64,000 nt of DNA from Nitrospirae bacterium MYbin3 (GTDB lineage: Bacteria > Nitrospirota > Thermodesulfovibrionia > Thermodesulfovibrionales > Dissulfurispiraceae): the NCBI GenBank assembly GCA_002753335.1, contig PEAD01000002.1:124001-188000 (forward strand), in the 5' to 3' direction. The translations under genes and the position numbers were made by a program. Shown here in pieces: positions 7,435-21,352 of the stretch (its first letter is position 1; every line of letters begins with the position of its first letter). The notes beneath the pieces were generated by a model. The model was not told where the DNA came from. It saw only the letters and a program-made list of their open reading frames with translations, and ran no database searches.

Positions 7435-8370
7435 ATGCTGACTCTTTCTTACATTGTCCGGCAGGTCGAGTCTAGGCTTTTACAGATAATACCGGCAAAG
7501 ATACTTTCGGTTATTATTGGCTTTCTGCTGTTTTCCTCGACAACCTATGCCGAAAATTTTAGTTATGAGAAATACGATTCTATAATTGGAGCGTTGCAGA
7601 CCCATAAGGTTCAAGACAATGAATCTCTTATAGAGATTGCGAGAAAATTTGATGTGGGTTATAACTCTATAGTAAACGCCAATCCTGAGTTTGATCCTTT
7701 TGTTCCTACTGTGGATGGCGAGGTAAAAGTACCTACCGAATGGACTCTGCCTGAGGTTGACGTTTATGACGGAATTGTTATCAATATTTCCGAAATGAGG
7801 CTGTATCATTTTTTTATGCAAAAAGGGAGAAAACTGGTTCAGACTTTTCCTATAGGCATCGGAAGCGAAGGGAACGATACTCCACTCGGGAATTTCAGGG
7901 TTGTCGAGAAGATTGTTAAACCAAGCTGGCATGTGCCTGATTCAATCAGAGAGGAGCGGCCTGAGCTGCCGCGTGTTGTGCCGCCCGGCCCAGAAAATCC
8001 TCTTGGTTCGCATGCTTTAAGGCTTTCTTCTCACAGCATAATGATTCATGGCACAGACAAGCCGTGGGCGGTAGGAAGGCGCGCTACTCATGGATGTCTG
8101 AGGCTTTATCCCGAAGATATTCCGAAGCTTTTTAAAGCCGTTGCAAATGGCGCCAAGGTTGTTATAACAAGGCAGCCGGTTAAGGCAGGCCTTAAGAGCG
8201 GGAAGGTGTATCTTGAGGTGCACAAAGACGACGAAGAACGCCCCGAAAACTACATGCGGCTTGCTGTCGGCGTGTTGAAGAGAAAGAATCTTTTAAAAGA
8301 TGTAAGCACAGAAAAACTTTATCAGGCTATACGTGACAAGACAGGAATTCCTGTCTTGATTTCTGAATAA
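7435..8370 (+). CDS. LysM-containing L,D-transpeptidase (ErfK/YbiS/YcfS family)
   Basis: LysM LIEIARKFDVG; VVPPGPENPLG; IHGT...RATHGCLRL catalytic motif. Confidence 0.93.
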   Translation: MLTLSYIVRQVESRLLQIIPAKILSVIIGFLLFSSTTYAENFSYEKYDSIIGALQTHKVQDNESLIEIARKFDVGYNSIVNANPEFDPFVPTVDGEVKVPTEWTLPEVDVYDGIVINISEMRLYHFFMQKGRKLVQTFPIGIGSEGNDTPLGNFRVVEKIVKPSWHVPDSIREERPELPRVVPPGPENPLGSHALRLSSHSIMIHGTDKPWAVGRRATHGCLRLYPEDIPKLFKAVANGAKVVITRQPVKAGLKSGKVYLEVHKDDEERPENYMRLAVGVLKRKNLLKDVSTEKLYQAIRDKTGIPVLISE

Positions 8371-8373
8371 AAA

Positions 8374-8404
8374 AGAGGCTCAGGATTTGTCATCCTGAGC
8401 CTCT
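8374..8404. terminator. Hairpin terminator between convergent genes
   Basis: AGAGGCTCAGGAT-ttgtc-ATCCTGAGCCTCT, preceded by an A-run (U-tract on the minus strand). Confidence 0.8.
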
Positions 8405-8422
8405 GGAATGTCTAAAAACAAA

Positions 8423-8803
8423 TTATTTCTTTTGATGGAGTTCAAAAGCCTTCTGGGCTTTCTTTGAAGACATTTCAGCCTTTGACAAAGCAGCTTCGGC
8501 TCTGTCAGCAGCAGCTTCAGCTCTCTTTGCAGCTGCATCTGATTTTGCAGAAGCGTCCTTAGCCATATTCATGGCATCAGCAGCCAAAGCCTTTGCGTCT
8601 CTTGCATCTTTCTTAGCCTGGTCAATCTCGGCCACTTTGCCCTCGATGGAGCTTACTTTTGATTCGATAGCGGCAACTCTTGCTTCGAGCTTGCTGATTC
8701 TGTCAACAAGCGGGTCTATCTGCTGCTTTACGTATTCCTTTGTTGCACATCCTGCGGATAAAAGAAACATCACTGCTATCGTAAGCAATAAAACTTTTTT
8801 CAT
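8423..8803 (-). CDS. Lpp/OprI-like alanine-zipper lipoprotein
   Basis: Lipobox LSAGC; Ala-rich coiled coil; C-terminal Lys (HQKK). Confidence 0.85.
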   Translation of the reverse strand: MKKVLLLTIAVMFLLSAGCATKEYVKQQIDPLVDRISKLEARVAAIESKVSSIEGKVAEIDQAKKDARDAKALAADAMNMAKDASAKSDAAAKRAEAAADRAEAALSKAEMSSKKAQKAFELHQKK

Positions 8804-8988
8804 CTACGTAACACCTCCTTTCTGGTTTTATTAGTTTATTAAAAAGCATACACCCATCTATGTTTTTTTTCAAGCACAAAAATGGCTCTGAGACAAAAAC
8901 TATTAAACACCGATACTTAGCTTCAAAATCAAAAATCAGGAATCAATTGACAAAAACATTTAGTGTATAGTTAAATATTAATTCTCTT

Positions 8989-9064
8989 GGGCGGATAGCT
9001 CAGCTGGGAGAGCGCTGCCCTTACAAGGCAGATGTCGCAGGTTCGATCCCTGTTCCGCCTACCA
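8989..9064 (+). tRNA. tRNA-Val(TAC)
   Basis: Full cloverleaf; anticodon arm CTGCC-CTTACAA-GGCAG; TTCGA; CCA end. Confidence 0.97.
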
Positions 9065-9089
9065 TTTTTTCTCTGTGCGGTGCCCCATT

Positions 9090-9166
9090 GGGGCGGTAGT
9101 TCAGCTGGTTAGAACGCCTGCCTGTCACGCAGGAGGTCGCGGGTTCGAGTCCCGTCCGCCCCGCCA
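9090..9166 (+). tRNA. tRNA-Asp(GTC)
   Basis: Cloverleaf; anticodon arm CCTGC-CTGTCAC-GCAGG; CCA end. Confidence 0.97.
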
Positions 9167-9197
9167 TAACCCCCAAGAGTTACAACGAAGATTTACC

Positions 9198-9226
9198 TTC
9201 CACCGATGGTTAAAAGATGTTATAAT
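9198..9226 (+). promoter_or_regulatory. Putative promoter for tRNA-Ser
   Basis: TTCCAC-N17-TATAAT with extended TGn. Confidence 0.45.
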
Positions 9227-9251
9227 TTTTGTTCTGAATAGCTGGTTCTTT

Positions 9252-9341
<90 letters not shown>

Positions 9342-9351
9342 GTGCAAGCAA

Positions 9352-10128
9352 CTAGAATTCCACTCCCACTTCAGCAAACGGTCCGCTGAATTTAAATCCG
9401 GCCTTTATGTCTTCCGCATCAATGCTGATATCTTCGTAGCGGTACCCTGCTGCGATAAAGCCTTTTAGTATGCCGGCATTTATAACTCTGCCTTTAATTC
9501 TTCCAACCACATCGTAATAGTGGGCATTGCCAAAGGATATGCCTCTTAAATCTGCCTCAATAGAAACCTTTTCGTGAATTTTTATCTGTGCTCCAAGATA
9601 ACCCATAGGCACAGGAAGGGTAAGGCTTTTTGATATGCTCTGGTTTGTAGCAGGCTGGTCAATTTTTATTTTAAAGTCTATTACTCTAAGATTTAATCCT
9701 GCATCAACATTAAGAGTGTCTTTCGTGGCGGTTTTCACAAATGGAACACCATAATAAAAAGCAAAGTCATAGTGATCGAGCGTAAGTTCTGTTGAATATG
9801 AATTATTAGCCGTAAAATTCTGGTTGTCAAACTGGAAATTTGCGGCCTTGATACCGGTTCCTTTGAATTTCATGGGAGTGGCCATAATGTAAATATTGGG
9901 CAAAAAAAGCGGCAGCTCAGCCTTGACACGAGCATACATCTGGCTTTTGCTGTCATATTTCAGATCACTTGCAAGGCCGAGAGAGTCGCCTTTATACTGA
10001 AGATTGCCGTCAGGGCGCTGGTACCATACACCCAAGGCCACCTCTCCGCCAAGAGCCAGAACTATTTGTGGTATAAAAAAGACAGAAAAGAAAATGAATA
10101 TACCCATCAATTTCGAAAATTTCAACAT
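9352..10128 (-). CDS. Outer membrane beta-barrel protein (TIGR04219-like)
   Basis: Signal peptide; ELPLFLPNI and PVPMGY motifs; C-terminal GPFAEVGVEF. Confidence 0.8.
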   Translation of the reverse strand: MLKFSKLMGIFIFFSVFFIPQIVLALGGEVALGVWYQRPDGNLQYKGDSLGLASDLKYDSKSQMYARVKAELPLFLPNIYIMATPMKFKGTGIKAANFQFDNQNFTANNSYSTELTLDHYDFAFYYGVPFVKTATKDTLNVDAGLNLRVIDFKIKIDQPATNQSISKSLTLPVPMGYLGAQIKIHEKVSIEADLRGISFGNAHYYDVVGRIKGRVINAGILKGFIAAGYRYEDISIDAEDIKAGFKFSGPFAEVGVEF

Positions 10129-10164
10129 TATTTATTCCTCCTTTTAGGCAATATTAGACAACTG

Positions 10165-11103
10165 CTATTTTGCTGATGAAACTTTGTCGCCTTCTTTTAT
10201 TGAATCGCATTTTCCGCTTATGCAGACTGCATCTGCCGAAACTTTGTCGCAGCCGATAATCTTCAAATCTGCTATAGGTTCAACTATGCGTCTTATCACT
10301 TGGCCTGTGGTGGGGCTCGTTATTTCTTTTGTAACCTTGATTACGTACATTGTCATGTCTTTTTGGATACCGATGTTTTGTCCGGCGTCTAAAATGAATG
10401 TCTTGTTGCTGCGATCCACATGAGCAATGACGGTATTTAAAAAAGAATCCTTAATTTTAGCTGATTGGTCTTTTAGCTGTTTCACAATGTCAGTAACAGT
10501 TTTTCTTGTTGCATTTCCCAATAAGGCGTCAACTTGGCCTGTATCATCAACAGCCGCATAATCGCCCATTTTAAAGCCGGAGGCAGAATCATCTCCCTTT
10601 CCTTCAACAGCAGTTATTATTTCTGCAGAAGTAGTATCAATCATTCTCGCATTTGCAGCCACCTTTGCAACGCTTGTTTTGGTGCCTATGCCCAATATTC
10701 CGGTACTCGAAAAGCTCAGTCCATACTGTGTAACGCTTCCGACAACAACTGCGCTTACACCCAATATCTTGCCTATTTTAGCCGCCTCAGCAGTATCAAC
10801 AAGCCCACTCATAGAAAACTTTTGTTCATTTAATACTTTTTCGATCTGCCCTCTCTCTATTACTTTAAAAGTCCCGTCTTTAACGAGCTCGGTAATAAGC
10901 ATATCAGTAACAGCACGTCCTATATTGCTTTTGTTTATTTTGACGTTCTGAAGTCTGCCGTCGTCGTCCTTTTTCTGAACCTGTGTGGTTGTGGCTGCAT
11001 CCTCAAAGTCCAATACCGCTATTTTTTTCTCGCCTGCGTGAGATATTCCTGCGATTAAAACAAGAGATAATGCTAAAGCAACCACATTTTTGATAGAAAA
11101 CAT
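10165..11103 (-). CDS. CsgG/HfaB family protein with C-terminal FlgT-like domain
   Basis: IAVLDF...DMLITELVK...FKVIER..IEKVLNEQ...AAKIGKILG..VVGSVT. Confidence 0.85.
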   Translation of the reverse strand: MFSIKNVVALALSLVLIAGISHAGEKKIAVLDFEDAATTTQVQKKDDDGRLQNVKINKSNIGRAVTDMLITELVKDGTFKVIERGQIEKVLNEQKFSMSGLVDTAEAAKIGKILGVSAVVVGSVTQYGLSFSSTGILGIGTKTSVAKVAANARMIDTTSAEIITAVEGKGDDSASGFKMGDYAAVDDTGQVDALLGNATRKTVTDIVKQLKDQSAKIKDSFLNTVIAHVDRSNKTFILDAGQNIGIQKDMTMYVIKVTKEITSPTTGQVIRRIVEPIADLKIIGCDKVSADAVCISGKCDSIKEGDKVSSAK

Positions 11104-11125
11104 TCCGATGACTCCTTAACCTAAA

Positions 11126-11151
11126 CAGGGCCAACAATAGTGTTGGCCCTG
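11126..11151 (-). terminator. Intercistronic stem-loop
   Basis: CAGGGCCAACA-atag-TGTTGGCCCTG perfect 11-bp stem; short U run on the minus strand. Confidence 0.55.
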
Positions 11152-11173
11152 CTCATGGTTTGTAAGCTTTTTT

Positions 11174-12106
11174 TTAAAACAAACTGTAAAATCCGAAGGT
11201 TAGTGACGGTTTCCGTTTTTCGGCATTCACACAGTTATAACTTGTGGATACAGGTATGTTCACTCCCAAGTTCAGCGCACGCTTATCGGTGAAAAAATAC
11301 TTCACCTCAGGAGTAACGTCCACAGTTGAAAGCCTGTCTTGCTGTTCAACTCCTTCTATCTTTGTCCCCTGGGTTACCGAGCCTGACAGTTTAAGTCCTG
11401 TCCAGATTCTCAGCTGTTTTGCAACATTAGCATCTAAAGCGGCCATCCAGGTAAACGAATCACCATAATTTACTTTTTGTCCATATACCTTAGGAGTATT
11501 TATTGGATGTATATACCCACCACTACCTATAAACCTGAATATGTCTATCCTTTTTATAATCCTCTGCGTAAGCCCAACATCATAGGAACCAGAGCCGAGT
11601 CCTGCATCCTGATCGCCCGACGGAAGCTTTCCTGTTATTAAGGTCTGGTATTCTATCTCCTTCTCATCACCGAACCTCTGTTTAAGTGTCAGGCTTATGT
11701 CGCCGATACTGGACGATTTATTCCAGTTGCCGTCTGCCTCCTGATATTTAACGAACATAAAAGGCACGTTTCCTACGATTGCGGTCCTTTCGCTAAAACT
11801 GTGGCTTATCGGAATGTTAAAGACTTTTTTGTTGCTTGACATGGTTGAGTCAATGCCAACCCCTGTTGTCCCAGCAGGAACCGGAGCCGCTGTTGGCGTC
11901 TGGATATCCGTGTTAGTCTGAATGGTTGACTTCACAGAATCATTGCTTATTTTGTCCTGAGGATTGTTCGGAACGACTATCTTTTCTGCTCCCACGGGAG
12001 CAGTTTCTGATCCTCATCAAGCTGCTGCTGCAAAATTAGCAACAGATACGACTAAAACAAAGCCAAGAAGCAATACTACAAAAAACTGGTTTTTTGATAG
12101 ACTCAT
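11174..12106 (-). CDS. Outer-membrane beta-barrel transporter-like protein, candidate selenoprotein (two in-frame TGA at codons 30-31)
   Basis: AGGAGG RBS and ATG at 12106; 29-aa signal peptide; TGA TGA at 12014-12019, in frame with ORF 11174..11995; GDISLTLK / KLPSGD..GLGSGSYD barrel motifs; terminal Phe. Confidence 0.7.
11986..12003 (-). promoter_or_regulatory. Putative bacterial SECIS hairpin
   Basis: Minus strand CTGCTCC-CGTG-GGAGCAG starts after a 10-nt spacer from the second TGA; G in the apical loop. Confidence 0.6.
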
Positions 12107-12183
12107 AGATACCTCCTAAAATAATTAGTATTGGCATATAAATTAGCACGATAAAAAAGAATTTTTCAATAATAAGCGTAAAT

Positions 12184-14835
12184 TTAACCTTCTGCAAGAT
12201 TCTTGACTCTTTTTCTAAGCTCGTCAGCAAAATGCTGGTATACATCAGTTTCTCCTGCTTTTCGCCTGATGTCCATTCGGTCAATTTCAAGCGGGCTGCC
12301 GAATGAAACCGTTATTTTGCAGGGCTGTATAAAAGCGGAGCCCTTAGGGAGAGCTTTGAATGCGCCTTCAATATAAGCAGGTATCACCGGGACACCGAGC
12401 TCTACTGCTAGCACACCAATGCCTTTTTTGAAGGGCATAAGCTTACCGTCAAAGGACCGGCCACCTTCAGGGAATATGCAGAGAGAAGACTGTTTTTTAA
12501 CTGCAAAGGCTGACAGTTGCAGTGCCCTATGCAGATAAGTTTCCTGATCTATAGGAATTACGTGGCCCAATTTGGCAAGCCATGATCTGAGTTTGCCAGC
12601 AAAAAAATTCTGCAGTCCCAGAAAATAAAGTTTTTTAAAAACATCAAAAGGCACCGATGCAGCAATAATAAAAGCATCAAGATAACTTGTGTGATTAGGT
12701 GCGATTACGAATGCTCCTTCTGCCGGAATGTTTTCGAGTCCTCTTACTTTTAAGCAAAAAACTGTTTTAAAAATAAACTTCTTGGCAAAGAACAAAAATC
12801 TTACAATTGCTGTTTCAATGATGCTCAAACGGCTTTCGATTCTTTTTAAGTCTTCGGTTGATGGCGACTTAGCAAGTATTGTCCCCCATTCAGATTTTTC
12901 AGAAAATTGTTTTTCACCGGTATCGCTTTTTTGATCTGTCAAACATTCTTTTATAAGGACTACTGCATCTTTTACTGTTTGCACCCTTGAGGTAAAAGCT
13001 TCCGGGATATTTATCAAAAATGTTTCTTCAAGAATTGACACAAATTCTACCCGCTTTAAAGAATCAAAACCGAGATCGAGTTCTATATTCGTGTCCCATT
13101 GTATCGAAGCCTCGTCATCCGCAAGCGAATTAATGCAGCGCACCACCTCGCGCCCAACAGAATCCTCAATCAGTTCTTTATCTATTCCCCTGCGTTTTTT
13201 AGCCTCAACAGACGCTTTCAACGATTCCCCAACCATGAATCTGCGCAGTTTCCCAAGCGGCGTGCGCGGAAGAGGTTCCTGACAGAGAGTAAAGCCTTTT
13301 ATACGCATATATTCCGGCAGCTTCATAGACACTGCACTGATATCCCATTTAAGCGTTTCAGAAATATTGCCGATTTTTATTTTTTTTGCATATTCCAGGT
13401 CAGGCACTATCACCGCTTGAACAGCATGAGCCACTCCTTTATTTTCGATGCCGACCACACAGATCTCTTTTATGAGGGCAATTGATGAATACATTTTCTC
13501 TATGTCTTCAGGATAGATGTTTTTGCCTGAGCTCAATACTATCACTTCTTTCTTTCGAGCCGTAATAAACAGATACTCTTCATCGTCAAGATGTCCAATG
13601 TCTCCTGTAAAAAAACGGCCTTCTTTAAGAACCGCTTCTGTTGCAGCCTGATTCTTGTAGTAGCCTGTCATTACCATAGGCCCTTTTACCGTAATCTCAC
13701 CGTCATCCGATATTTTTATGTCAGCATTTGCCAGCGGTTTCCCCGCCGAGCCCGGTTTTCTTTTTTCGGGCGGGTTAAATGTTATGACAGGCGAGGTTTC
13801 TGTAAGTCCGTATCCTTCAAGCACGGTGAACCCAAGGGCTTCGAGATCGCTCATAACCTCAGGTTCTAGGCGGGCGCCGCCGCTTGCAAAAAACCTGAGT
13901 TTGCCGAAATTTGAGTGGACCGAGCGAAAAAATATTTTTCCGAGATTTAGTCCTGAATTATTTCTCAATATGCCGCAAAAATTCATAAGCTTCAACAGGA
14001 GAATCGAAAACCCTTTGCGTTCCTTTATCCGTGCAACAATACCATTTCTTATCATATCAAGCAGTCTCGGCACACAAACAACAACCGTCACACCGGTGTT
14101 TTTTATGGCCGAAACAATTTCGGCAGATTTTATTCCCGGACTGAAGGTTATTGAGCTGCCCAGAAAAAGCGGAACTATAAATGTGCACATGAAAGGGTAG
14201 GTGTGATGAAGCGGCAAAACAGAAAGTACAGTGTCATCCTTTGTAAGTACGCCCGCAGCTATCACCGCATCGGCATCTGAAGAGAAATTTTTGTGCGTGA
14301 GAACTACGCCTTTAGGTTTGCCTGTTGTGCCGGAAGTGTAGATTATAGATGCAATACAATCAGCCGAAAGAGAATCGCAGGGAGAAGGGTTGAATCCTTC
14401 AGGCACAGGCATCAGCGATTCTTTTTCTATCGGTACAGCTTTCGTGTTCATTGCTTTTGCGGCAGCAAGCGCAACATTTTCCGTTTTCGCACTAAAAAAT
14501 ACGACCTTTGCTTCCGAATCTATTAAAAGATTTTTGACCTCTTCCGCTCCGAGTTGAGCGTCTATCGGAACAGCTATCGCGCCAAGCCTTACAGTCGCCA
14601 TGTACGAGGCGCACCATTCAGGCCTGTTTTCGGAAACTACAGCAACCCTGTCGCCCTTTTTTATACCTGACAAATAAAGTGTGCATTCGAAACACTCTAT
14701 AAGAGAATGGAGTTCCGAATAGGTCATGGTTTCCCATGAGTCTTCATAGTAATTAAACGCAATACTATTCTTGTTGTCTGCAAGTGACAATGAGAACATA
14801 GAAGGAATAGTATTGCTATTTATTGAATCAGCCAT
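12184..14835 (-). CDS. Long-chain acyl-CoA synthetase fused to acyl carrier and lysophospholipid acyltransferase domains
   Basis: YTSGTTGKPKG, EGYGLTET, TGDIG; DLGFDSL (ACP Ser); NHTSYLD and FPEGGRS (PlsC). Confidence 0.92.
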   Translation of the reverse strand: MADSINSNTIPSMFSLSLADNKNSIAFNYYEDSWETMTYSELHSLIECFECTLYLSGIKKGDRVAVVSENRPEWCASYMATVRLGAIAVPIDAQLGAEEVKNLLIDSEAKVVFFSAKTENVALAAAKAMNTKAVPIEKESLMPVPEGFNPSPCDSLSADCIASIIYTSGTTGKPKGVVLTHKNFSSDADAVIAAGVLTKDDTVLSVLPLHHTYPFMCTFIVPLFLGSSITFSPGIKSAEIVSAIKNTGVTVVVCVPRLLDMIRNGIVARIKERKGFSILLLKLMNFCGILRNNSGLNLGKIFFRSVHSNFGKLRFFASGGARLEPEVMSDLEALGFTVLEGYGLTETSPVITFNPPEKRKPGSAGKPLANADIKISDDGEITVKGPMVMTGYYKNQAATEAVLKEGRFFTGDIGHLDDEEYLFITARKKEVIVLSSGKNIYPEDIEKMYSSIALIKEICVVGIENKGVAHAVQAVIVPDLEYAKKIKIGNISETLKWDISAVSMKLPEYMRIKGFTLCQEPLPRTPLGKLRRFMVGESLKASVEAKKRRGIDKELIEDSVGREVVRCINSLADDEASIQWDTNIELDLGFDSLKRVEFVSILEETFLINIPEAFTSRVQTVKDAVVLIKECLTDQKSDTGEKQFSEKSEWGTILAKSPSTEDLKRIESRLSIIETAIVRFLFFAKKFIFKTVFCLKVRGLENIPAEGAFVIAPNHTSYLDAFIIAASVPFDVFKKLYFLGLQNFFAGKLRSWLAKLGHVIPIDQETYLHRALQLSAFAVKKQSSLCIFPEGGRSFDGKLMPFKKGIGVLAVELGVPVIPAYIEGAFKALPKGSAFIQPCKITVSFGSPLEIDRMDIRRKAGETDVYQHFADELRKRVKNLAEG

Positions 14836-14963: not shown

Positions 14964-15040
14964 GGCGGTGTAGCTCAGACGGTTAGAGCATGCGGCTCAT
15001 ATCCGCAGTGTCCGGGGTTCGATTCCCTGCACCGCCACCA
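14964..15040 (+). tRNA. tRNA-Met(CAT), elongator type (Ile2 not fully excluded)
   Basis: Cloverleaf, G1-C72 pair, anticodon loop CTCATAT, CCA end. Confidence 0.93.
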
Positions 15041-15046
15041 AGTTTT

Positions 15047-15119
15047 TGTTACCGGGACTAATTGTTGGCCCGTTTGGCCAACTTTAGGTTCCTTTTACTT
15101 TTGGCCAAGCTTTGGTTCC
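15047..15119. repeat. Tn7-like end with three putative TnsB-binding sites
   Basis: GGGACTAATTGTTGGCCCG (15054-15072) and inverted copies TTGGCCAACTTTAGGTTCC (15074-15092) and TTGGCCAAGCTTTGGTTCC (15101-15119). Confidence 0.75.
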
Positions 15120-15171
15120 TTTTAAAATATTACCATCTATAATAGACTCTATGACATTACAGAACTAGCTC

Positions 15172-16056
15172 TTAATCACCAAGTCGATATGGTATAGTGT
15201 ACTGCCTTATTGCATCCATTACATGATGTAGTAACCCGCCCATGGATCTTGAATAATATTCCGCTCCTATCTTTTCAATCTCGTAAAGAATATATTCCTT
15301 TTCATTTAAACGTCCTCTATGTTCAGGGTGAGACCAAACAAGGTTAACCAACTTTTTAAGATACTCTATGTTTTCATTTGATTCCATTGTTTCAAAAAGA
15401 GGAAGCAAAAGATTGCAGTCTATGTCCTGCCAGTCAAGAATTTGATTAAACAGCTTCAAGGGAATATCTACTGATTTTATGAAGAAGTGAGCACTTGATT
15501 TCATATACGAATTAATATTTTGATGATATTTTATATCCATCAATTTTTTTTCTACTTCATTCTCATTAAAAAATGCAAAATTGCGCTTTCTCCGCGCCAC
15601 AAAAATATTATTCTCTGTATCTTTTATGGCAAATGCGCATGCCGTGTAGCCATTGCGCTTTTGTCTCCATATACGTCTTGCGTACTCTATCGGTTCATCG
15701 GAAATCCTAAAAAAAATAAAATTAACTTTAAGATTGTGGTTAGCAATAATATTTATGATTTCATAATCAATATCTCGTTTGATATTTTCGGGTAAAATAA
15801 TTTTTATAGGACAAGTCATGTCTGCCTGCCTAAAAGGATTATACGATGTATTGTCTAAATACCCTGGATCCAAATTTAAAAATGGTGCCATCTTTTTCAA
15901 ATAACCCATTGACAGCGAATTTTTCCCACTTTCATATTGCGCTATTGCAGCCTGACTTACTCCTATTGAATCGGCAATATGTGCTTGAGATATACCTTGC
16001 ACCCGCCGTGAAATTAGAAGTAACTTTGAAAATGCAATCATCGGAGGAAAAAACAT
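15172..16056 (-). CDS. XRE-family HTH transcriptional regulator with unknown C-terminal domain
   Basis: GISQAHIADSIGVSQAAIAQYESG. Confidence 0.8.
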   Translation of the reverse strand: MFFPPMIAFSKLLLISRRVQGISQAHIADSIGVSQAAIAQYESGKNSLSMGYLKKMAPFLNLDPGYLDNTSYNPFRQADMTCPIKIILPENIKRDIDYEIINIIANHNLKVNFIFFRISDEPIEYARRIWRQKRNGYTACAFAIKDTENNIFVARRKRNFAFFNENEVEKKLMDIKYHQNINSYMKSSAHFFIKSVDIPLKLFNQILDWQDIDCNLLLPLFETMESNENIEYLKKLVNLVWSHPEHRGRLNEKEYILYEIEKIGAEYYSRSMGGLLHHVMDAIRQYTIPYRLGD

Positions 16057-16091
16057 ATGTTACATTATATATTTGATTTTAAAATATTCTA

Positions 16092-16203
16092 CAAATAGTA
16101 TCTATTTGATATTGCAACAATTTTTCTTCAATTTTATTCGTCATAAAAACACATAACTTATTTTATAACATATCTATCAATATTTATAACATTTTGTTAT
16201 AAA
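16092..16203. promoter_or_regulatory. Palindromic operator candidates in the divergent xre/tniQ intergenic region
   Basis: CAAATAG-tat-CTATTTG (16092-16108); TTTATAACA-ttt-TGTTATAAA (16183-16203); extra half-site at 16162. Confidence 0.45.
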
Positions 16204-16220
16204 TATTCAAGGAAACTTCT

Positions 16221-17378
16221 ATGAGAAAAAGCACTAAAGCTATTAAGCAAAGAAACTTAGTTATTGTTGATAACCCATACCAACCACTTGATCTAGAAAT
16301 TCCAGAAATCCCTGAACGCAGAATACTTATAGCTGACCCTATTGGAATCGGTACGTCACTTATAGAGGGTCTCAACAGCTTGATTTCTCGAACAGCGCAA
16401 AAATATAGCATTCCGCTTAATATCCTAATGTACGAATTTTTCCCACAGTTAAAGGAAAAGCTTGTTTTCTACTCTGAAAAAAAGAAAGCACCTTTTATAA
16501 AGCCAGAGTTGTTCAAAGAGATTGAGAGCGCAATTTCCTCAACAATGCCACTTATGAGGAGTTTGAACAACAATATTAATCTTCAAATGCTAACTACGGC
16601 GACATTAGGATTTCACAAAATTAGATTTCAGCATTTAAATGAGCCCATTATCCGCAGATCTCGCGCATGGTGCCCAAATTGCTATCAAGACTGGCATGAT
16701 CGAAAATATCCGGTTTACGACCCCCTTATATGGAGCATATCATGCATTAAGGTCTGCCCTACACATAAAGCTCATTTGCTTTTATCCTGCCCCTACTGTC
16801 TTGCAGAGCCACCAATGATTGCCGACAAATACCGCCCAGGCTATTGCTCCAAGTGCCGAAAATGGCTTGGTAAGAAACAAGATAGAAATAATTACGATAG
16901 TGTTGATTTAAGATGGCACAAATGGCTTTTTAAAAACATAGGTGCGATGATTTCAGAGCAACACAGCAAACATGAGGTCAAATTTGCAAGCAGAAAATAC
17001 CGAATAATGAAAGCGTGTTTTGATGAACTTGGACTACCCCAGCATAATGTTCAATCTGCAACAATTGAAAATTACTTTCCCTCGTTTGAATCATTTCTGA
17101 AATTTATTTATTTGTCAGGCCTTCAATTTTCCAAAATGATGTGCTGCGATGAAGAACTACTCCCAATTAACATTTCTGAGTATGCCAAGGCATCAGAAGA
17201 GCTCAAAAAAAGACATGAAAAATATAGCAATATTTTTTCTCGACCATATAATTTAGCCGATTCGATTGATCATGAGAAAACAAATTATTGTTTCGATGTA
17301 AATATTTTTGATCTCATTCTTGGGTGCAAGAAATTTTACCCCACTCGATTAGGCACTAATAATGATATTAGGACATAG
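16221..17378 (+). CDS. tniQ: TniQ family protein
   Basis: GIGTSLIEGLNSLISR; RAWCPNCY...YDPLIW...CPTH..L...CPYC...CSKC zinc motifs. Confidence 0.88.
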   Translation: MRKSTKAIKQRNLVIVDNPYQPLDLEIPEIPERRILIADPIGIGTSLIEGLNSLISRTAQKYSIPLNILMYEFFPQLKEKLVFYSEKKKAPFIKPELFKEIESAISSTMPLMRSLNNNINLQMLTTATLGFHKIRFQHLNEPIIRRSRAWCPNCYQDWHDRKYPVYDPLIWSISCIKVCPTHKAHLLLSCPYCLAEPPMIADKYRPGYCSKCRKWLGKKQDRNNYDSVDLRWHKWLFKNIGAMISEQHSKHEVKFASRKYRIMKACFDELGLPQHNVQSATIENYFPSFESFLKFIYLSGLQFSKMMCCDEELLPINISEYAKASEELKKRHEKYSNIFSRPYNLADSIDHEKTNYCFDVNIFDLILGCKKFYPTRLGTNNDIRT

Positions 17379-18696
17379 CTATTTATCAAGCTTAAATCCA
17401 GAAGGACTAGGAACTCCTCTTGCTGAGTCCGTAACTAGTTATATACCTCGTTTATGCAAACTACATTCTATTAGCTTTAGCACGTTTCTATCAGACATTT
17501 TATTTCCGAAAATGGGTACTTTGTCATTAGTAAATAGCATTAAAAGGGGTTGTTCCAGAGTTTATACGCGCCCGTATGCGTTTAACGGCGTCAGCAATTT
17601 TACCGAGAAGATAATCCATACACTTGAGCTTCTCACTCTCCAAAAGAATCTAATTTATATAACATTGCTACCACTAAGAAATATCATTAGCTGTCAAAAC
17701 GTCTTCCGCCATTATCGCGCATGGTGTCCAATATGCCTTGCAGAACGCAAAGATCGTGCACTCACAATATACGAGCCTCTCGTATGGACAATAAAAGCCG
17801 TTAGGAGTTGTTTAGTCCACCACATATCACTACGCACTCAATGCCATAAATGCGGCAATATGCTACCAGTGATAGCAAGACATGTCCAAAACGGGTTTTG
17901 CTCTACATGTGGGCACTGGCTCGGTTTAACAGATACAAACAATAAATATCCTGTGGATCCTATCCCCGATTTCGACTCATGGAAAGATAGAAACATTGGT
18001 GAATTGATATCTATTCTTCCAGAAACTATAAATATAACTCGCAACGAAACATTGCGTACAGTACTAACAGAGCACATTAATTTGCATTATAAGGGTAGTG
18101 CCTCGGCATATGCCAGGTCGGCAAAAATTCCAAAAGCTACTATAAGCAGATGGCAAGCAGGAACAGCTCTGCCTTCCCTAGAAAATCTCTTGAAGATAAG
18201 CTACAGAAGCCAGACACCATTAGCAGACCTTATAACTAAGGGTCGCTTGCAGAAGGATGCTAAAGTCTTTGATTATCAGGATTCGGAATCTCTTTTCCCC
18301 GCTTCTCCAAGGAAGACCAATGATTTTGACTACGCTTATGTCAAGCGACACCTCGAATCTGTCCTTAAAAGCAAATCGGAAAATCCTCTTTCCATGACCA
18401 AAGTGGCTGAGAATTTAGGCTATACGAAAAAAACTTTATACAAACATTTCTATGTTCTTTGTCGGCACATCTCAGCGAAAGCAGCATGTCATAGAAAAGC
18501 CCGCAAAGAGCAAAGACTAGGTCAAGAAAGACTTTTTGTTGAGAAAGTTGCTGAACAACTGCACATCGAAGGCGTGTATCCAAGCTATGACGCTATCGAA
18601 AATGCAGCCCCCAAAAAAGGAATTATGCGCAGCCACGAATCACGAGACGCTTGGAAAAACAAGTTGCGTGAGTTTGGGTTTGAGAATGGAGGCTGA
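17362..18696 (+). CDS. tniQ: TniQ/TnsD family target selector with C-terminal HTH domains
   Basis: GLGTPLAESVTSYIPRL; RAWCPICL...YEPLVW...CLVH...CHKC...CSTCGHWLG; HTHs IPKATISRWQAG and MTKVAENLGYTKKTLY. Confidence 0.88.
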   Translation: MILGHSYLSSLNPEGLGTPLAESVTSYIPRLCKLHSISFSTFLSDILFPKMGTLSLVNSIKRGCSRVYTRPYAFNGVSNFTEKIIHTLELLTLQKNLIYITLLPLRNIISCQNVFRHYRAWCPICLAERKDRALTIYEPLVWTIKAVRSCLVHHISLRTQCHKCGNMLPVIARHVQNGFCSTCGHWLGLTDTNNKYPVDPIPDFDSWKDRNIGELISILPETINITRNETLRTVLTEHINLHYKGSASAYARSAKIPKATISRWQAGTALPSLENLLKISYRSQTPLADLITKGRLQKDAKVFDYQDSESLFPASPRKTNDFDYAYVKRHLESVLKSKSENPLSMTKVAENLGYTKKTLYKHFYVLCRHISAKAACHRKARKEQRLGQERLFVEKVAEQLHIEGVYPSYDAIENAAPKKGIMRSHESRDAWKNKLREFGFENGG

Positions 18697-18768
18697 TTCT
18701 TTAAGCGCAAAAAAACAATACCAATAAAAATCGACCAGCATTAATGCGAGGTCAAAAAGGAGGCAGTT

Positions 18769-19901
18769 ATGTTATCTAGTGAAAATTTTGAGGTCTGGTG
18801 CGCAAAGAATAGGGTGTCCGAAAAAGCAAAGGCTTTCATTTCACGCGTCCGGGGTTCACAACCCTCAAGGGCTGTGGGGAACCGGTTGCGAAATGTCAAA
18901 GGTGCTTATCCCAGCAACAAAAATGGCTTCATGGTCCAGTTTGAAAGCCACACAGCTGAACTATGTGGTATTTATACTTACGAGTATGATGCTGACGTGC
19001 TGGAATACTATGATCAGCCCGAATTGATATATGTCAGATACAAAGACAAAAACGGCAGGGCGGGACTTTTTGGATATAGGCCGGATTTCCTGGTAATTAC
19101 AGAATCATGTGCATTCATTGATGAGTGGAAAACTGAAAATCAAATCGCAAAGCTATCTGCTGACTATCCCGACCGGTATTACCGTGATAGTGACGGCACC
19201 TGGCATTATGTGCCTGGGGAGGAATTTGCTGATAGCATTGGTCTTCAATTTAGAGTACGAACAACTGAGGAGATTAATTACACGCTACATCGCAATATTC
19301 AATTTTTAGAAGATTATCTCCGCGCAGATAATTTAACAATACCGGAAGAAAAGATAAACCTTATACTTTCAACTGTTAAAAGCTCTCCCGGAACAACTCT
19401 TTCAAGCCTTATTGATAGTCTCTCACCGCAGGTAAGCGTTGATTTTATATATATAATGATTTCCGATTTTAGAATATATCTTGATCTAGAAACATATCTA
19501 CTTGTAGACCCTGAGCATGCAATCATTTTCCCGGATGAAGAAATCGCAAAAGCCCTTAAAATATTCGATACCCAGCACCCTACGCTTTCTTTCCAGGACC
19601 TGCGACCTGTTTTGGTAGATGTCGGAGGATCATTAGTATGGGACGGCATACCTTTGACGATTGAATTTGTGGGGGCATCATCAATAGTTCTTAAGGGCAG
19701 GGATGATAAAATCATCACGTTAGAAAAAAGTTTATTAAACAAGTTTGTTCGGGAAGGAATCATTACCGGCCTTACTACGGTTACGGGAACTTCACGTGAT
19801 TTTGTATTGGAAATTATCATGAAAGCTAGCAAGGATGCCTTGATTAAGGCAAATCATAGGTACCAAACCATACTGCCTTACCTTACCAGAAATAACCATA
19901 G
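18769..19901 (+). pseudogene. TnsA-TnsB fusion transposase, 5' part only (interrupted by IS3)
   Basis: TnsA endonuclease motifs QFESH.E, EYYDQP, YRPDFLV, DEWK; frame continues past TnsA length; last ~15 codons of ORF 18769..19950 come from the IS end; no DDE core. Confidence 0.8.
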
Positions 19902-19962
19902 TGAGAAGTGGTCGGGTTTGTCTGTACAGGCTGAAGCCTATTATAAGTGATAAGCTGTTCTA

Positions 19963-20793
19963 TCAGGCTGCCACCTTAATAGATGGCAATGTGCCATAGT
20001 AAACTTCATCCGGTGTTTTGTCGTCAAGTCCTTGATGCCGCCGCCGACCGTTGTAAAACTCAAAATACTCTATAAGTCCTTTCCTTAATTCCGCAATCGA
20101 ATCATAAGACTTCAGATAAATATCTTCATATTTCACGCTTCGCCAAAGTCGCTCTACAAATACGTTATCTTTCCAGCAGCCTTTTCCATCCATGCTGATC
20201 TTAATCCCGTTGTCTTTGAGTATTTCCGTAAATGCCTCCGATGTGAATTGACTACCTTGGTCTGTATTGAAGATCTCTGGTTTGCCGAACCTTGATATCG
20301 CCTCTTCAAGAGCCTCTGTACAAAAAGAGGTATCCAGCGTATTTGATAACCGCCAGGCCAATACTTTTCGGCTGGCCCAATCCATTATCGCTACAAGATA
20401 GCAAAATCCCTTGGCCATAGGTATATAGGTTATGTCAGCCGCATATACCTGATTCGCACGATTGATTTCCATTCCACGCAACAAGTAGGGATAAACCTTA
20501 TGATCAGGATGAGGATTAGATAGCCTTGGCTTTTGGTATAAAGCCACTATGCCCATCTTCAACATCAGCGTCCGTACATGGCCGCGTCCAATCTCATGCC
20601 CTCTGTCCCTTAGCTCATTGCGTATTCTCCTGTTGCCGTAAAAAGGATATTTCATGTGAATTTCATCTATTAGGCGCATCAGCTCCAGGTCTTTTGCGTT
20701 CATAGGAAATGATTCATAATACAAGCTCGATCTCGACATGTTTAGTATTTGACATTGCCTGGTCAGCGGCAATTCATTAGCACGATCTATCAT
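19963..20793 (-). CDS. IS3 transposase OrfB (DDE integrase core)
   Basis: ADITYI, NTDQGSQFTS, DNVFVERLWRSVKYE. Confidence 0.95.
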   Translation of the reverse strand: MIDRANELPLTRQCQILNMSRSSLYYESFPMNAKDLELMRLIDEIHMKYPFYGNRRIRNELRDRGHEIGRGHVRTLMLKMGIVALYQKPRLSNPHPDHKVYPYLLRGMEINRANQVYAADITYIPMAKGFCYLVAIMDWASRKVLAWRLSNTLDTSFCTEALEEAISRFGKPEIFNTDQGSQFTSEAFTEILKDNGIKISMDGKGCWKDNVFVERLWRSVKYEDIYLKSYDSIAELRKGLIEYFEFYNGRRRHQGLDDKTPDEVYYGTLPSIKVAA

Positions 20794-21092
20794 CTCTTTG
20801 CGCTCGGCTCGGCTATGCGCCCGAGCGCGACTGATAAAAAATCGTTCTCCATAGTCAATTGCCCTATCTTGGCATGTAGCTCTTTTACTGGAGGACCTTC
20901 TGCCTCTTTCTTATCCTTGCTAAAAACTTCCTCTGCCCTCTCCAACAGTTGCTTCTTCCACTCCGTGATTTGATTCTGATGAACTCCAAATCGCTGCGAC
21001 AGCTCTATCAAAGTCTGCTCCCCTTTGATTGCCTCCAGTGCCACTTTTGCCTTGAACCCTGCCTTGTGATTCCTTCTCGGTCTTTTTGCCAT
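20790..21092 (-). CDS. IS3 transposase OrfA (HTH)
   Basis: FKAKVALEAIKGE..ELSQRFGVH.NQI..WKKQ; ATGA overlap with orfB. Confidence 0.93.
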   Translation of the reverse strand: MAKRPRRNHKAGFKAKVALEAIKGEQTLIELSQRFGVHQNQITEWKKQLLERAEEVFSKDKKEAEGPPVKELHAKIGQLTMENDFLSVALGRIAEPSAKR

Positions 21093-21171
21093 TTCGCTGC
21101 TCCTTTCTCTAATTATTTTAGAGCAGCTTTATCACTTATGTCCTAGTTCAGTTTTTCCAGACCACTTCTCA

Positions 21172-21352
21172 CTACGCCACAGCCTTTCTACATAGACATT
21201 GTCCATCCAGCAACCTTTGCCATCCATGCTTATACTGATGCCGTTGCTGATAAGTATCTCTGTAAAAGCCTCTGATGTAAACTGACTGCCCTGATCTGTA
21301 TTGAATATCTCAGGCTTCCCATACCTTCTTATTGCTTCTTCCAGTGCAGCTC
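21172..21352 (-). pseudogene. Fragment of a second, related IS3 orfB
   Basis: Manual translation AALEEAIERYGKPEIFNTDQGSQFTSEAFTEILISNGISISMDGKGCWMDNVYVERLWRS; similar but not identical to the intact OrfB. Confidence 0.85.

Follow-up and report, generated by a model that had tools for sequence, protein, structure and literature searches.

The question how the selectors of Tn7-family transposons acquire new attachment sites has no settled answer, and the spacing between site and transposon end is regarded as a constant set by the TnsC ring. This question is raised by a broken Tn7-like element in a 64,000-nt stretch of Nitrospirae bacterium MYbin3 (contig PEAD01000002.1, positions 124,001 to 188,000; the window), which begins very close to a tRNA-Met gene. 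The original prediction had placed the element end 6 bp past the CCA of this tRNA, and the end was indeed found there: the terminal TGT starts at 15047, 6 nt past the CCA and 9 nt past the discriminator, and is followed by a site array of the family type. The spacing itself had been seen, but it had not been noticed that it departs from the approximately 30 bp that are usual in the family.

The element is virtually certain to belong to the tRNA-targeting Tn7-like elements with TnsAB fusions. Two TniQ genes with an overlap of 17 bp, described before as overlapping, encode proteins of 385 aa and 444 aa, both of which match PF06527 (E 5.8e-9 and E 1.8e-14, respectively); the second has extra helix-turn-helix (HTH) matches. 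The best solved-structure match of both is the TnsD 8V32_J, in agreement with the proposed relationship to the type I-B2 and I-D lineage. The TnsA-type open reading frame (ORF) matches PF08722 and PF08721, extends about 135 aa beyond the TnsA domains, and aligns throughout with the N-terminal ~375 aa of TnsAB fusions of 880–910 aa (best identity 46%). The suspicion that this overlong TnsA is the beginning of a fusion was thus borne out, and a full-length fusion is present in the related genome G439. The nuclease retains the motif PD106..E119-W-K121 (PD106..E119xK121). D106 has been named a catalytic residue of McCAST (PMC9881144).

The spacing between tRNA-Met and the transposon ends

In a comparison set of 80 TnsAB loci of other genomes and the loci given handles here, the ends of family members next to a tRNA or tmRNA gene are located 29–34 nt past the discriminator (nucleotide 73), with a mode of 31 (20 scored ends, 24 loci given). 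Published tRNA-to-end spacings are 29 ± 1 bp (PMC9881144) and 30–33 nt (PMC10293859). The 9 nt of the window do not match this typical insertion distance of about 29–33 nt and represent a shift of 22 nt toward the tRNA.

The end in the window was scored in several ways. A site matrix derived from 16 ends of the family, the window left out, gives the direct site at 15076 a score of 16.3 bits and that at 15103 a score of 18.0 bits, and their register is the same as in the family ends. The inverted site at 15054 is weak on this matrix (2.8 bits) but directly resembles the other two sites. In a matrix-free repeat test the window end reaches 38, the 99th percentile of 1,500 genomic TGTNAC sites being 26. 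The terminal 25 nt are divergent (2.5 bits against the 5.8-bit threshold of a terminal matrix), and the end therefore passes the repeat test and fails the terminal-matrix test.

The short gap is not confined to the window. The sequence TGTNAC occurs 5–14 nt past CCTGCACCGCCA, the 3′ anchor of tRNA-Met, in 20 of 390 genomes of the host class (23 matches, which are not independent because the genomes are kin). The repeat test is passed by 12 of these 23 matches versus none of 14 at 15–44 nt, and the terminal-matrix test by 14 of 23 versus 2 of 14. A pattern accepting any tRNA, which misses the canonical elements of the host class with their different termini, gave 17 matches in 271 genomes. Eleven pass either test, and all 11 are at tRNA-Met, with gaps of 8, 8, 8, 9, 9, 9, 9, 10, 13, 20, and 25 nt. 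Of 41 tRNA-Met flanks of relatives that were selected irrespective of TGTNAC, 7 passed at 4–14 nt; at 25–36 nt, three passed by the repeat score alone (terminal scores between −23 and −34) and are read as chance. Other TniQ clades of the host class, found at tRNA-Leu and tRNA-Ser, show the spacing typical of the family.

An intact relative with tnsC, a right end, and a mapped insertion site, which had been called for, was found in G439. This 24.5-kb element (G439:C2 1325458–1349922) lies at tRNA-Met with a gap of 6 and has the 5-bp target duplication TTACT on both sides. It encodes an HTH protein, a TniQ of 468 aa, a TnsAB of 890 aa, and a TnsC of 389 aa, and its tns genes read away from the tRNA. 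Its sole TniQ is a relative of the 444-aa TnsD of the window. The element is followed by an older left end, which would sit at a gap of 9. Taken together, the recurrent ends in the class genomes and the G439 element confirm the predicted targeting of tRNA-Met, and this gene is very probably a dedicated short-gap site of the lineage, mostly with gaps of 6–11 nt.

A possible shift of the TnsD target site

A conserved target motif has been described 40–50 bp from the left end (PMC11837452), and in our own alignment this motif is the T-arm in canonical targets. In canonical elements the distance from T54 to the end is 49–54 nt (n = 20); its mode of 51 equals the distance from C32 to the end in the window. 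For nine hand-picked short-gap ends at intact tRNA-Met genes, the C32-to-end distance is 48–52 nt. The 22-nt shift places the anticodon arm of tRNA-Met, GGCTCATATCC, at the position that the T-arm motif GGTTCGATTCC has in known targets, and 7 of 11 positions match. Compared with the T-arm motif 22 nt downstream in the same gene (15016–15026), GGCTCATATCC is identical at 7 of 11 positions. The attachment tRNA, which we take to be of the elongator type, has a G1:C72 pair and is one among three CAT tRNAs of the genome. Its anticodon arm ranks first as a T-arm mimic at an offset of 21–22 among the 38 tRNAs of that genome.

The 444-aa TnsD aligns to 8V32_J over residues 6–439 (E 1e-63). In the phylogeny it groups with P0032, P0033, P0035, P0037, and the TnsDs of G439, G410, and G053, with a value of 99.3 in the Shimodaira-Hasegawa-like approximate likelihood-ratio test (SH-aLRT). 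One tree was calculated with FastTree, and L020, L087, L089, L098, L130, and L137 were dropped from it as likely duplicates; a second, the SH-aLRT tree, contains 30 of 55 sequences. Deep nodes are weak. The profile searches recommended earlier agreed with the assignment of the ORFs to TniQ and TnsA. A TniQ of this family occurs in 9 of the 390 class genomes, 4 times in the clade of the 444-aa TnsD and in all 4 cases upstream of tnsA. Judged from these sequence relationships, the 444-aa TnsD is likely the tRNA-Met selector.

By analogy to PmcCAST and McCAST, TnsD would bind the tRNA gene and load the TnsC ring, TnsC would recruit the end-bound TnsAB, and cut-and-paste insertion would take place at a constant spacing from the bound motif. 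We hypothesized that the 444-aa TnsD binds the anticodon arm of tRNA-Met instead of the T-arm, so that the motif would lie 22 nt further upstream and the same TnsC ruler would measure an unchanged distance of about 51 nt. This would put the insertion beside the CCA and confine it to tRNA-Met, and it could explain the short gaps of 6–11 nt. A slide of the TnsD of this clade by 22 bp, from the T-arm to a tRNA-Met-specific reading of the anticodon loop with an unchanged TnsC ruler, appears somewhat probable on these grounds.

Several observations weigh against such a slide. The mimic score of the anticodon arm is modest (6.8 bits) and only the fourth of 38 when all offsets are considered, and tRNA-Pro(CGG), not seen as a target, follows closely with 6.4 bits. 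The equal distances restate the 22-nt shift and are not a second observation, and 21–22 bp also correspond to two helical turns. Eight of the 23 short-gap matches, among them 4 of the 12 that pass the repeat test, lie behind partial attachment (att) copies without an anticodon arm; here, it is assumed that the transposon preceded an integrase island. Three end-like sequences at tRNA-Met have gaps of 13, 20, and 25 nt, in which pyrimidine tracts may be scars of repeated insertion, and one of the 12 passes of the repeat test, L207, looks like low-complexity chance. A direct link between the clade of the 444-aa TnsD and a short-gap end exists in only two genomes, that of the window and G439. Of 18 other genomes searched, most with a short-gap end, 17 gave no tnsAB match, and the remaining one, G004, has a TnsD of a different clade at tRNA-His. 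In G053 and G410, a TnsD of the clade of the 444-aa protein is present in elements without detected ends; next to tRNA-Met, G410 has no more than a degenerate end at about 15 nt, and G053 no more than TGTG at 9 nt.

Alternatively, TnsD might still sit on the T-arm or the acceptor stem of tRNA-Met, and the assembly might span about two helical turns less of DNA. The closeness of the shift to 21 bp would fit this explanation, as would the four passing ends that follow att copies keeping just the last 15–20 nt of the tRNA; G442 has two such partial copies, each with an end. However, TnsC is of normal size both in the genome of the window (387 aa) and in G439, TnsD aligns to 8V32_J over its whole length, and a heptameric TnsC has been described as the ruler of this lineage (PMC11915506). 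In addition, the restriction of all 11 passing ends to tRNA-Met would not be explained by a generic T-arm reader. A changed ruler is thus rather unlikely.

A still lower probability is assigned to the possibility that TnsD reads the 5′ part of tRNA-Met (the D-arm/anticodon region) via new contacts and that the likeness to the T-arm is coincidental. Some likeness is built in, as the anticodon and T loops both have 7 nt on 5-bp stems, and the helix of the second HTH is unlike that of most canonical TnsDs (KKTLY/KRTLY). Nevertheless, the shift falls within about 1 nt of the sole offset that superposes both loops, and at that offset the Met arm is the best mimic. Insertion at about 31 nt followed by deletion of the spacer is very improbable: although IS3 and IS21 copies have caused heavy rearrangement of the locus, the perfect duplication at a gap of 6 in G439 largely refutes it, the gaps cluster at 8–11 over several families with differing end sequences, and no passing end was found at 26–44 nt.

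The second TniQ and potential partners

The 385-aa TniQ had been suggested to define a new targeting pathway, its C-terminal half being unrecognised. This half is indeed without Pfam recognition, but residues 229–335 match the Hel2/XRE-HTH region of TnsD. Against the TnsD C-terminal profile they score 23.8 bits (best of 500 shuffles, 4.5), with a 12-residue gap in the HTH. The XRE-HTH is without one helix, and the distal HTHs are missing. Structure prediction of the TniQ pair had been proposed as a check. Modelled separately, the 444-aa TnsD gave a confident structure (predicted local distance difference test score, pLDDT, of 86), whereas residues 341–385 of the shorter protein have values below 50. 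The idea of a new domain was rejected, as atlas matches stayed below the bar and a fold search gave only TniQ/TnsD. Among 1.84 billion representatives, no full-length or close relative was found; the best 150 matches have 26–45% identity, most of them stopping near residue 250. The protein forms the longest branch, and its position is unstable in both trees. As far as these comparisons go, the C-terminal half is probably a largely eroded TnsD HTH region, and the protein is likely a shortened paralogue that is dispensable for homing. A role as a new selector is unlikely because of this erosion and because the G439 element is at tRNA-Met with a single TniQ.

The opposing possibility, a functional second selector that acts with TnsD or another partner in a new pathway, is given little credence. 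The ORF is intact, the TniQ core is normal and has kept its zinc-binding cysteines, and core-only TniQs are typically partner-dependent adaptors (PMC10293859). Furthermore, the same slot holds a second TniQ in G410 (518 aa) and G053 (467 aa), and a partner gene could be missing because the right part of the element is unassembled. Against this stand the lack of a close relative, the long and unstable branch, the lost helix, the absence of a cas gene or other partner in view, and the homing of the G439 element without this protein.

The location of the selectors upstream of tnsAB and the absence of cas genes in view, both stated in the original prediction, are in agreement with the gene order and with profile searches of the genome. 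PF01867, PF01905, PF18320, and PF05107 have no match in the genome (93.7% complete; Cas5, Cas6, Cas8, and Cas10d were not searched), and accordingly no cas1, Cas7, DevR, or Csc2 gene was found by these profiles. A simple repeat script detected no CRISPR array, and Cascade genes are not among the 15 scanned ORFs of the G439 element. The scanned ORFs of the window and of contig C51 contain no Pfam match of a TnsE- or TnsF-type partner such as accompanies the short TniQ in Tn6022-type elements, although no search with TnsE/TnsF profiles was made and the right part of the element is missing. Viral contigs yielded no relative, 33 matching plasmid records all have less than 60% identity, and a metagenome scan gave two loci, one of them a repeat of G410.

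State of the copy, its relatives, and known systems

The features of the locus are compiled in Table 1. The XRE-HTH protein upstream of the tns operon is likely a regulator; its atlas look-alikes score below 0.9, and its C-terminal part is without assignment. Divergent HTH genes upstream of the tns operon are also present in G439, G007, G004, and G466. Neither the XRE-HTH gene of the window nor the IS3 that ends the tnsAB frame had been noticed in the original prediction.

Table 1. Features of the Tn7-like element and its surroundings in the window
Feature	Position	Strand	Basis or remark
tRNA-Met(CAT), presumed elongator type, attachment gene	14964-15040	+	ARAGORN; discriminator A at 15037
Anticodon-arm motif GGCTCATATCC, proposed TnsD core site	14994-15004	+	sequence; binding inferred
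Expected 5-bp target duplication GTTTT	15042-15046	+	
Left end: TGT, one inverted and two direct 17-bp sites	15047-15119	+	inverted 15054-15070; direct 15076-15092 and 15103-15119
XRE-HTH protein, 294 aa, divergent from tns operon	15172-16056	-	PF01381 E 5.7e-10
TniQ, 385 aa: TniQ core followed by a probably eroded XRE-HTH region and a 45-aa tail predicted with low confidence; distal HTHs absent	16221-17378	+	
TnsD-type selector, 444 aa: TniQ core and three predicted helical DNA-binding modules	17362-18696	+	
tnsAB 5′ part, ~378 codons: TnsA nuclease and start of TnsB	18769-19903	+	cut by IS3
IS3-family element; orfA 20790-21092, orfB 19963-20793	19904-21169 (approx.)	-	NF033516 E 1.6e-80
Older IS3 fragment, outside the Tn7-like element	21170-21347	-	remainder at end of contig C61

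A search for tnsC, advised for the rest of the contig, was successful on another one. Contig C51 opens with the catalytic half of TnsB (residues 506–866 of P0060, 61%), followed by tnsC, IS21, and inovirus-like genes; its linkage to the window is inferred. A single A half and a single B half of tnsAB are present in the genome. The two do not overlap and share the same best match (P0060) among the TnsABs compared, so that they most likely represent one element with about 128 codons (~379–505) unassembled, as judged by sequence. The 3-bp flanks of the IS3 copies pair C61 with the right side of the window (CAC) and C50 with C51 (GTT). The left flank in the window (GTG) has no partner; the two flanks of this IS3 stem from different insertions, and the join across it is therefore chimeric, through assembly or recombination. 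The searches of the genome yielded no right end, and the other end with a GTTTT duplication that had been expected was not recovered either: none of 184 ACA-GTTTT sites in the genome carries a right-end site array. The copy in the window is likely immobile.

The region from 21329 to 64000 contains more than 40 kb of co-oriented minus-strand genes of low G+C, among them genes for glycosylation, methyltransferases, and B12 radical-SAM proteins. This glycosylation cluster was considered as transposon cargo and rejected on the basis of the flank pairing; it probably continues contig C61. A second element on C51 at tRNA-Lys appears unlikely, as no end was found at that gene and only one half of each kind in the genome. 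The inovirus-like prophage genes (C51 8015–12036 and C50 1–4130, with a G2P-type Rep and an ORF that we take to be Zot-like) are cut by an IS3 copy and adjoin tRNA-Lys(CTT); a 46-bp att copy lies on C60.

The relatives are diverse. The G439 element carries defence-like cargo, with a SMODS-SLATT pair and a restriction-modification methylase (L216 3566–5006, 12334–14520). The other short-gap ends are mostly relics that lack tns genes. Non-autonomous elements of 6–10 kb with both ends and no tns genes were observed in G439:C2 (~1371654–1381790), G442:C1, and G036:C16; they lie behind partial tRNA-Met att copies, and their flanks are without a matching 5-bp duplication. In the dual-TniQ relatives L052 (G410, 9201–12667) and L016 (G053, 7901–10619), no ends were detected, and TnsA and TnsB are separate ORFs, possibly through decay or because the fusion was split secondarily; in G410, a further TnsA-like ORF is present. 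G053 also contains a 119-bp direct repeat (99%; only two copies found, C39 55057–55175 and C30 6553–6671), one copy directly past tRNA-Met and the other about 50 bp past tnsC of the dual-TniQ element. The Bacillota loci L070, L073, and L093 are TnsAB elements of the order tniQ-tnsAB-tnsC-tniQ or tniQ-tniQ-tnsAB-tnsC with left ends after a tmRNA-type 3′ end (31–33 nt in L073 and L093). Tandem right-end/left-end junctions occur in L090, L092, L093, and L104, and the elements in L131 (7837–8000) and G484 (L205) are oriented opposite to the usual way, with the right-end type beside the tRNA or att copy.

With the known tRNA-targeting TnsAB-fusion elements (Hsieh and Peters, PMC9881144; including PmcCAST of type I-B2 and McCAST of type I-D), the element shares the fused TnsAB with nuclease aspartate 106, one inverted and two direct sites at the tRNA-proximal end, an HTH-extended TnsD (29% to the TnsD of L136), the frequent presence of two TniQs, and the 5-bp duplication (here in G439). 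It differs in its target tRNA-Met, in a gap of 6–11 instead of 29–34 nt, and, compared with the I-B2 and I-D CRISPR-associated transposons, in that no cas genes were found. The order here is tniQ-tnsD-tnsAB-tnsC away from the left end, whereas tRNA-adjacent cyanobacterial loci have tnsAB-tnsC-tniQ-tnsD toward it. The Tn7-like elements that target CRISPR arrays (PMC11837452) also use a tRNA-type TnsD that was retargeted via a motif look-alike at the same distance from the end. However, their C-terminal HTH was lost and their target became CRISPR repeats, whereas no module is missing from the TnsD described here, which appears to have slid along the tRNA gene. The 998 dual tniQ-tnsD loci of Faure et al. 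(PMC10293859) likewise have one TniQ of more than 400 aa and a smaller one, and dual TniQs are thought to come from local duplication (PMC10293859); here, the small TniQ is the first in the operon, and no Cascade, TnsE, or TnsF partner was found.

Dual TniQs, the TnsAB fusion, and tRNA homing without cas genes have all been described (PMC10293859, PMC9881144, PMC11406308, PMC8649781, bioRxiv 10.1101/2025.07.27.667033). New is therefore not the family but the target geometry, i.e., the recurrent tRNA-Met site shifted by 22 nt. In the accessible literature no paper apparently describes this short-gap tRNA-Met/anticodon geometry, although it may sit unremarked in large published locus sets; the word "Met" is absent from the supplement of PMC9881144, in whose table most targets are unlabelled.

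The copy in the window is a broken member, and its value is that of a pointer to the clade. A natural 22-nt shift within one gene separates the choice of the motif from the reach of the ruler, and the intact G439 element makes this testable. If true, the shift from the T-arm to the anticodon arm would be an uncomplicated way of turning a broad tRNA reader into a reader of one tRNA, and would yield a protein-only integrator for a conserved site.

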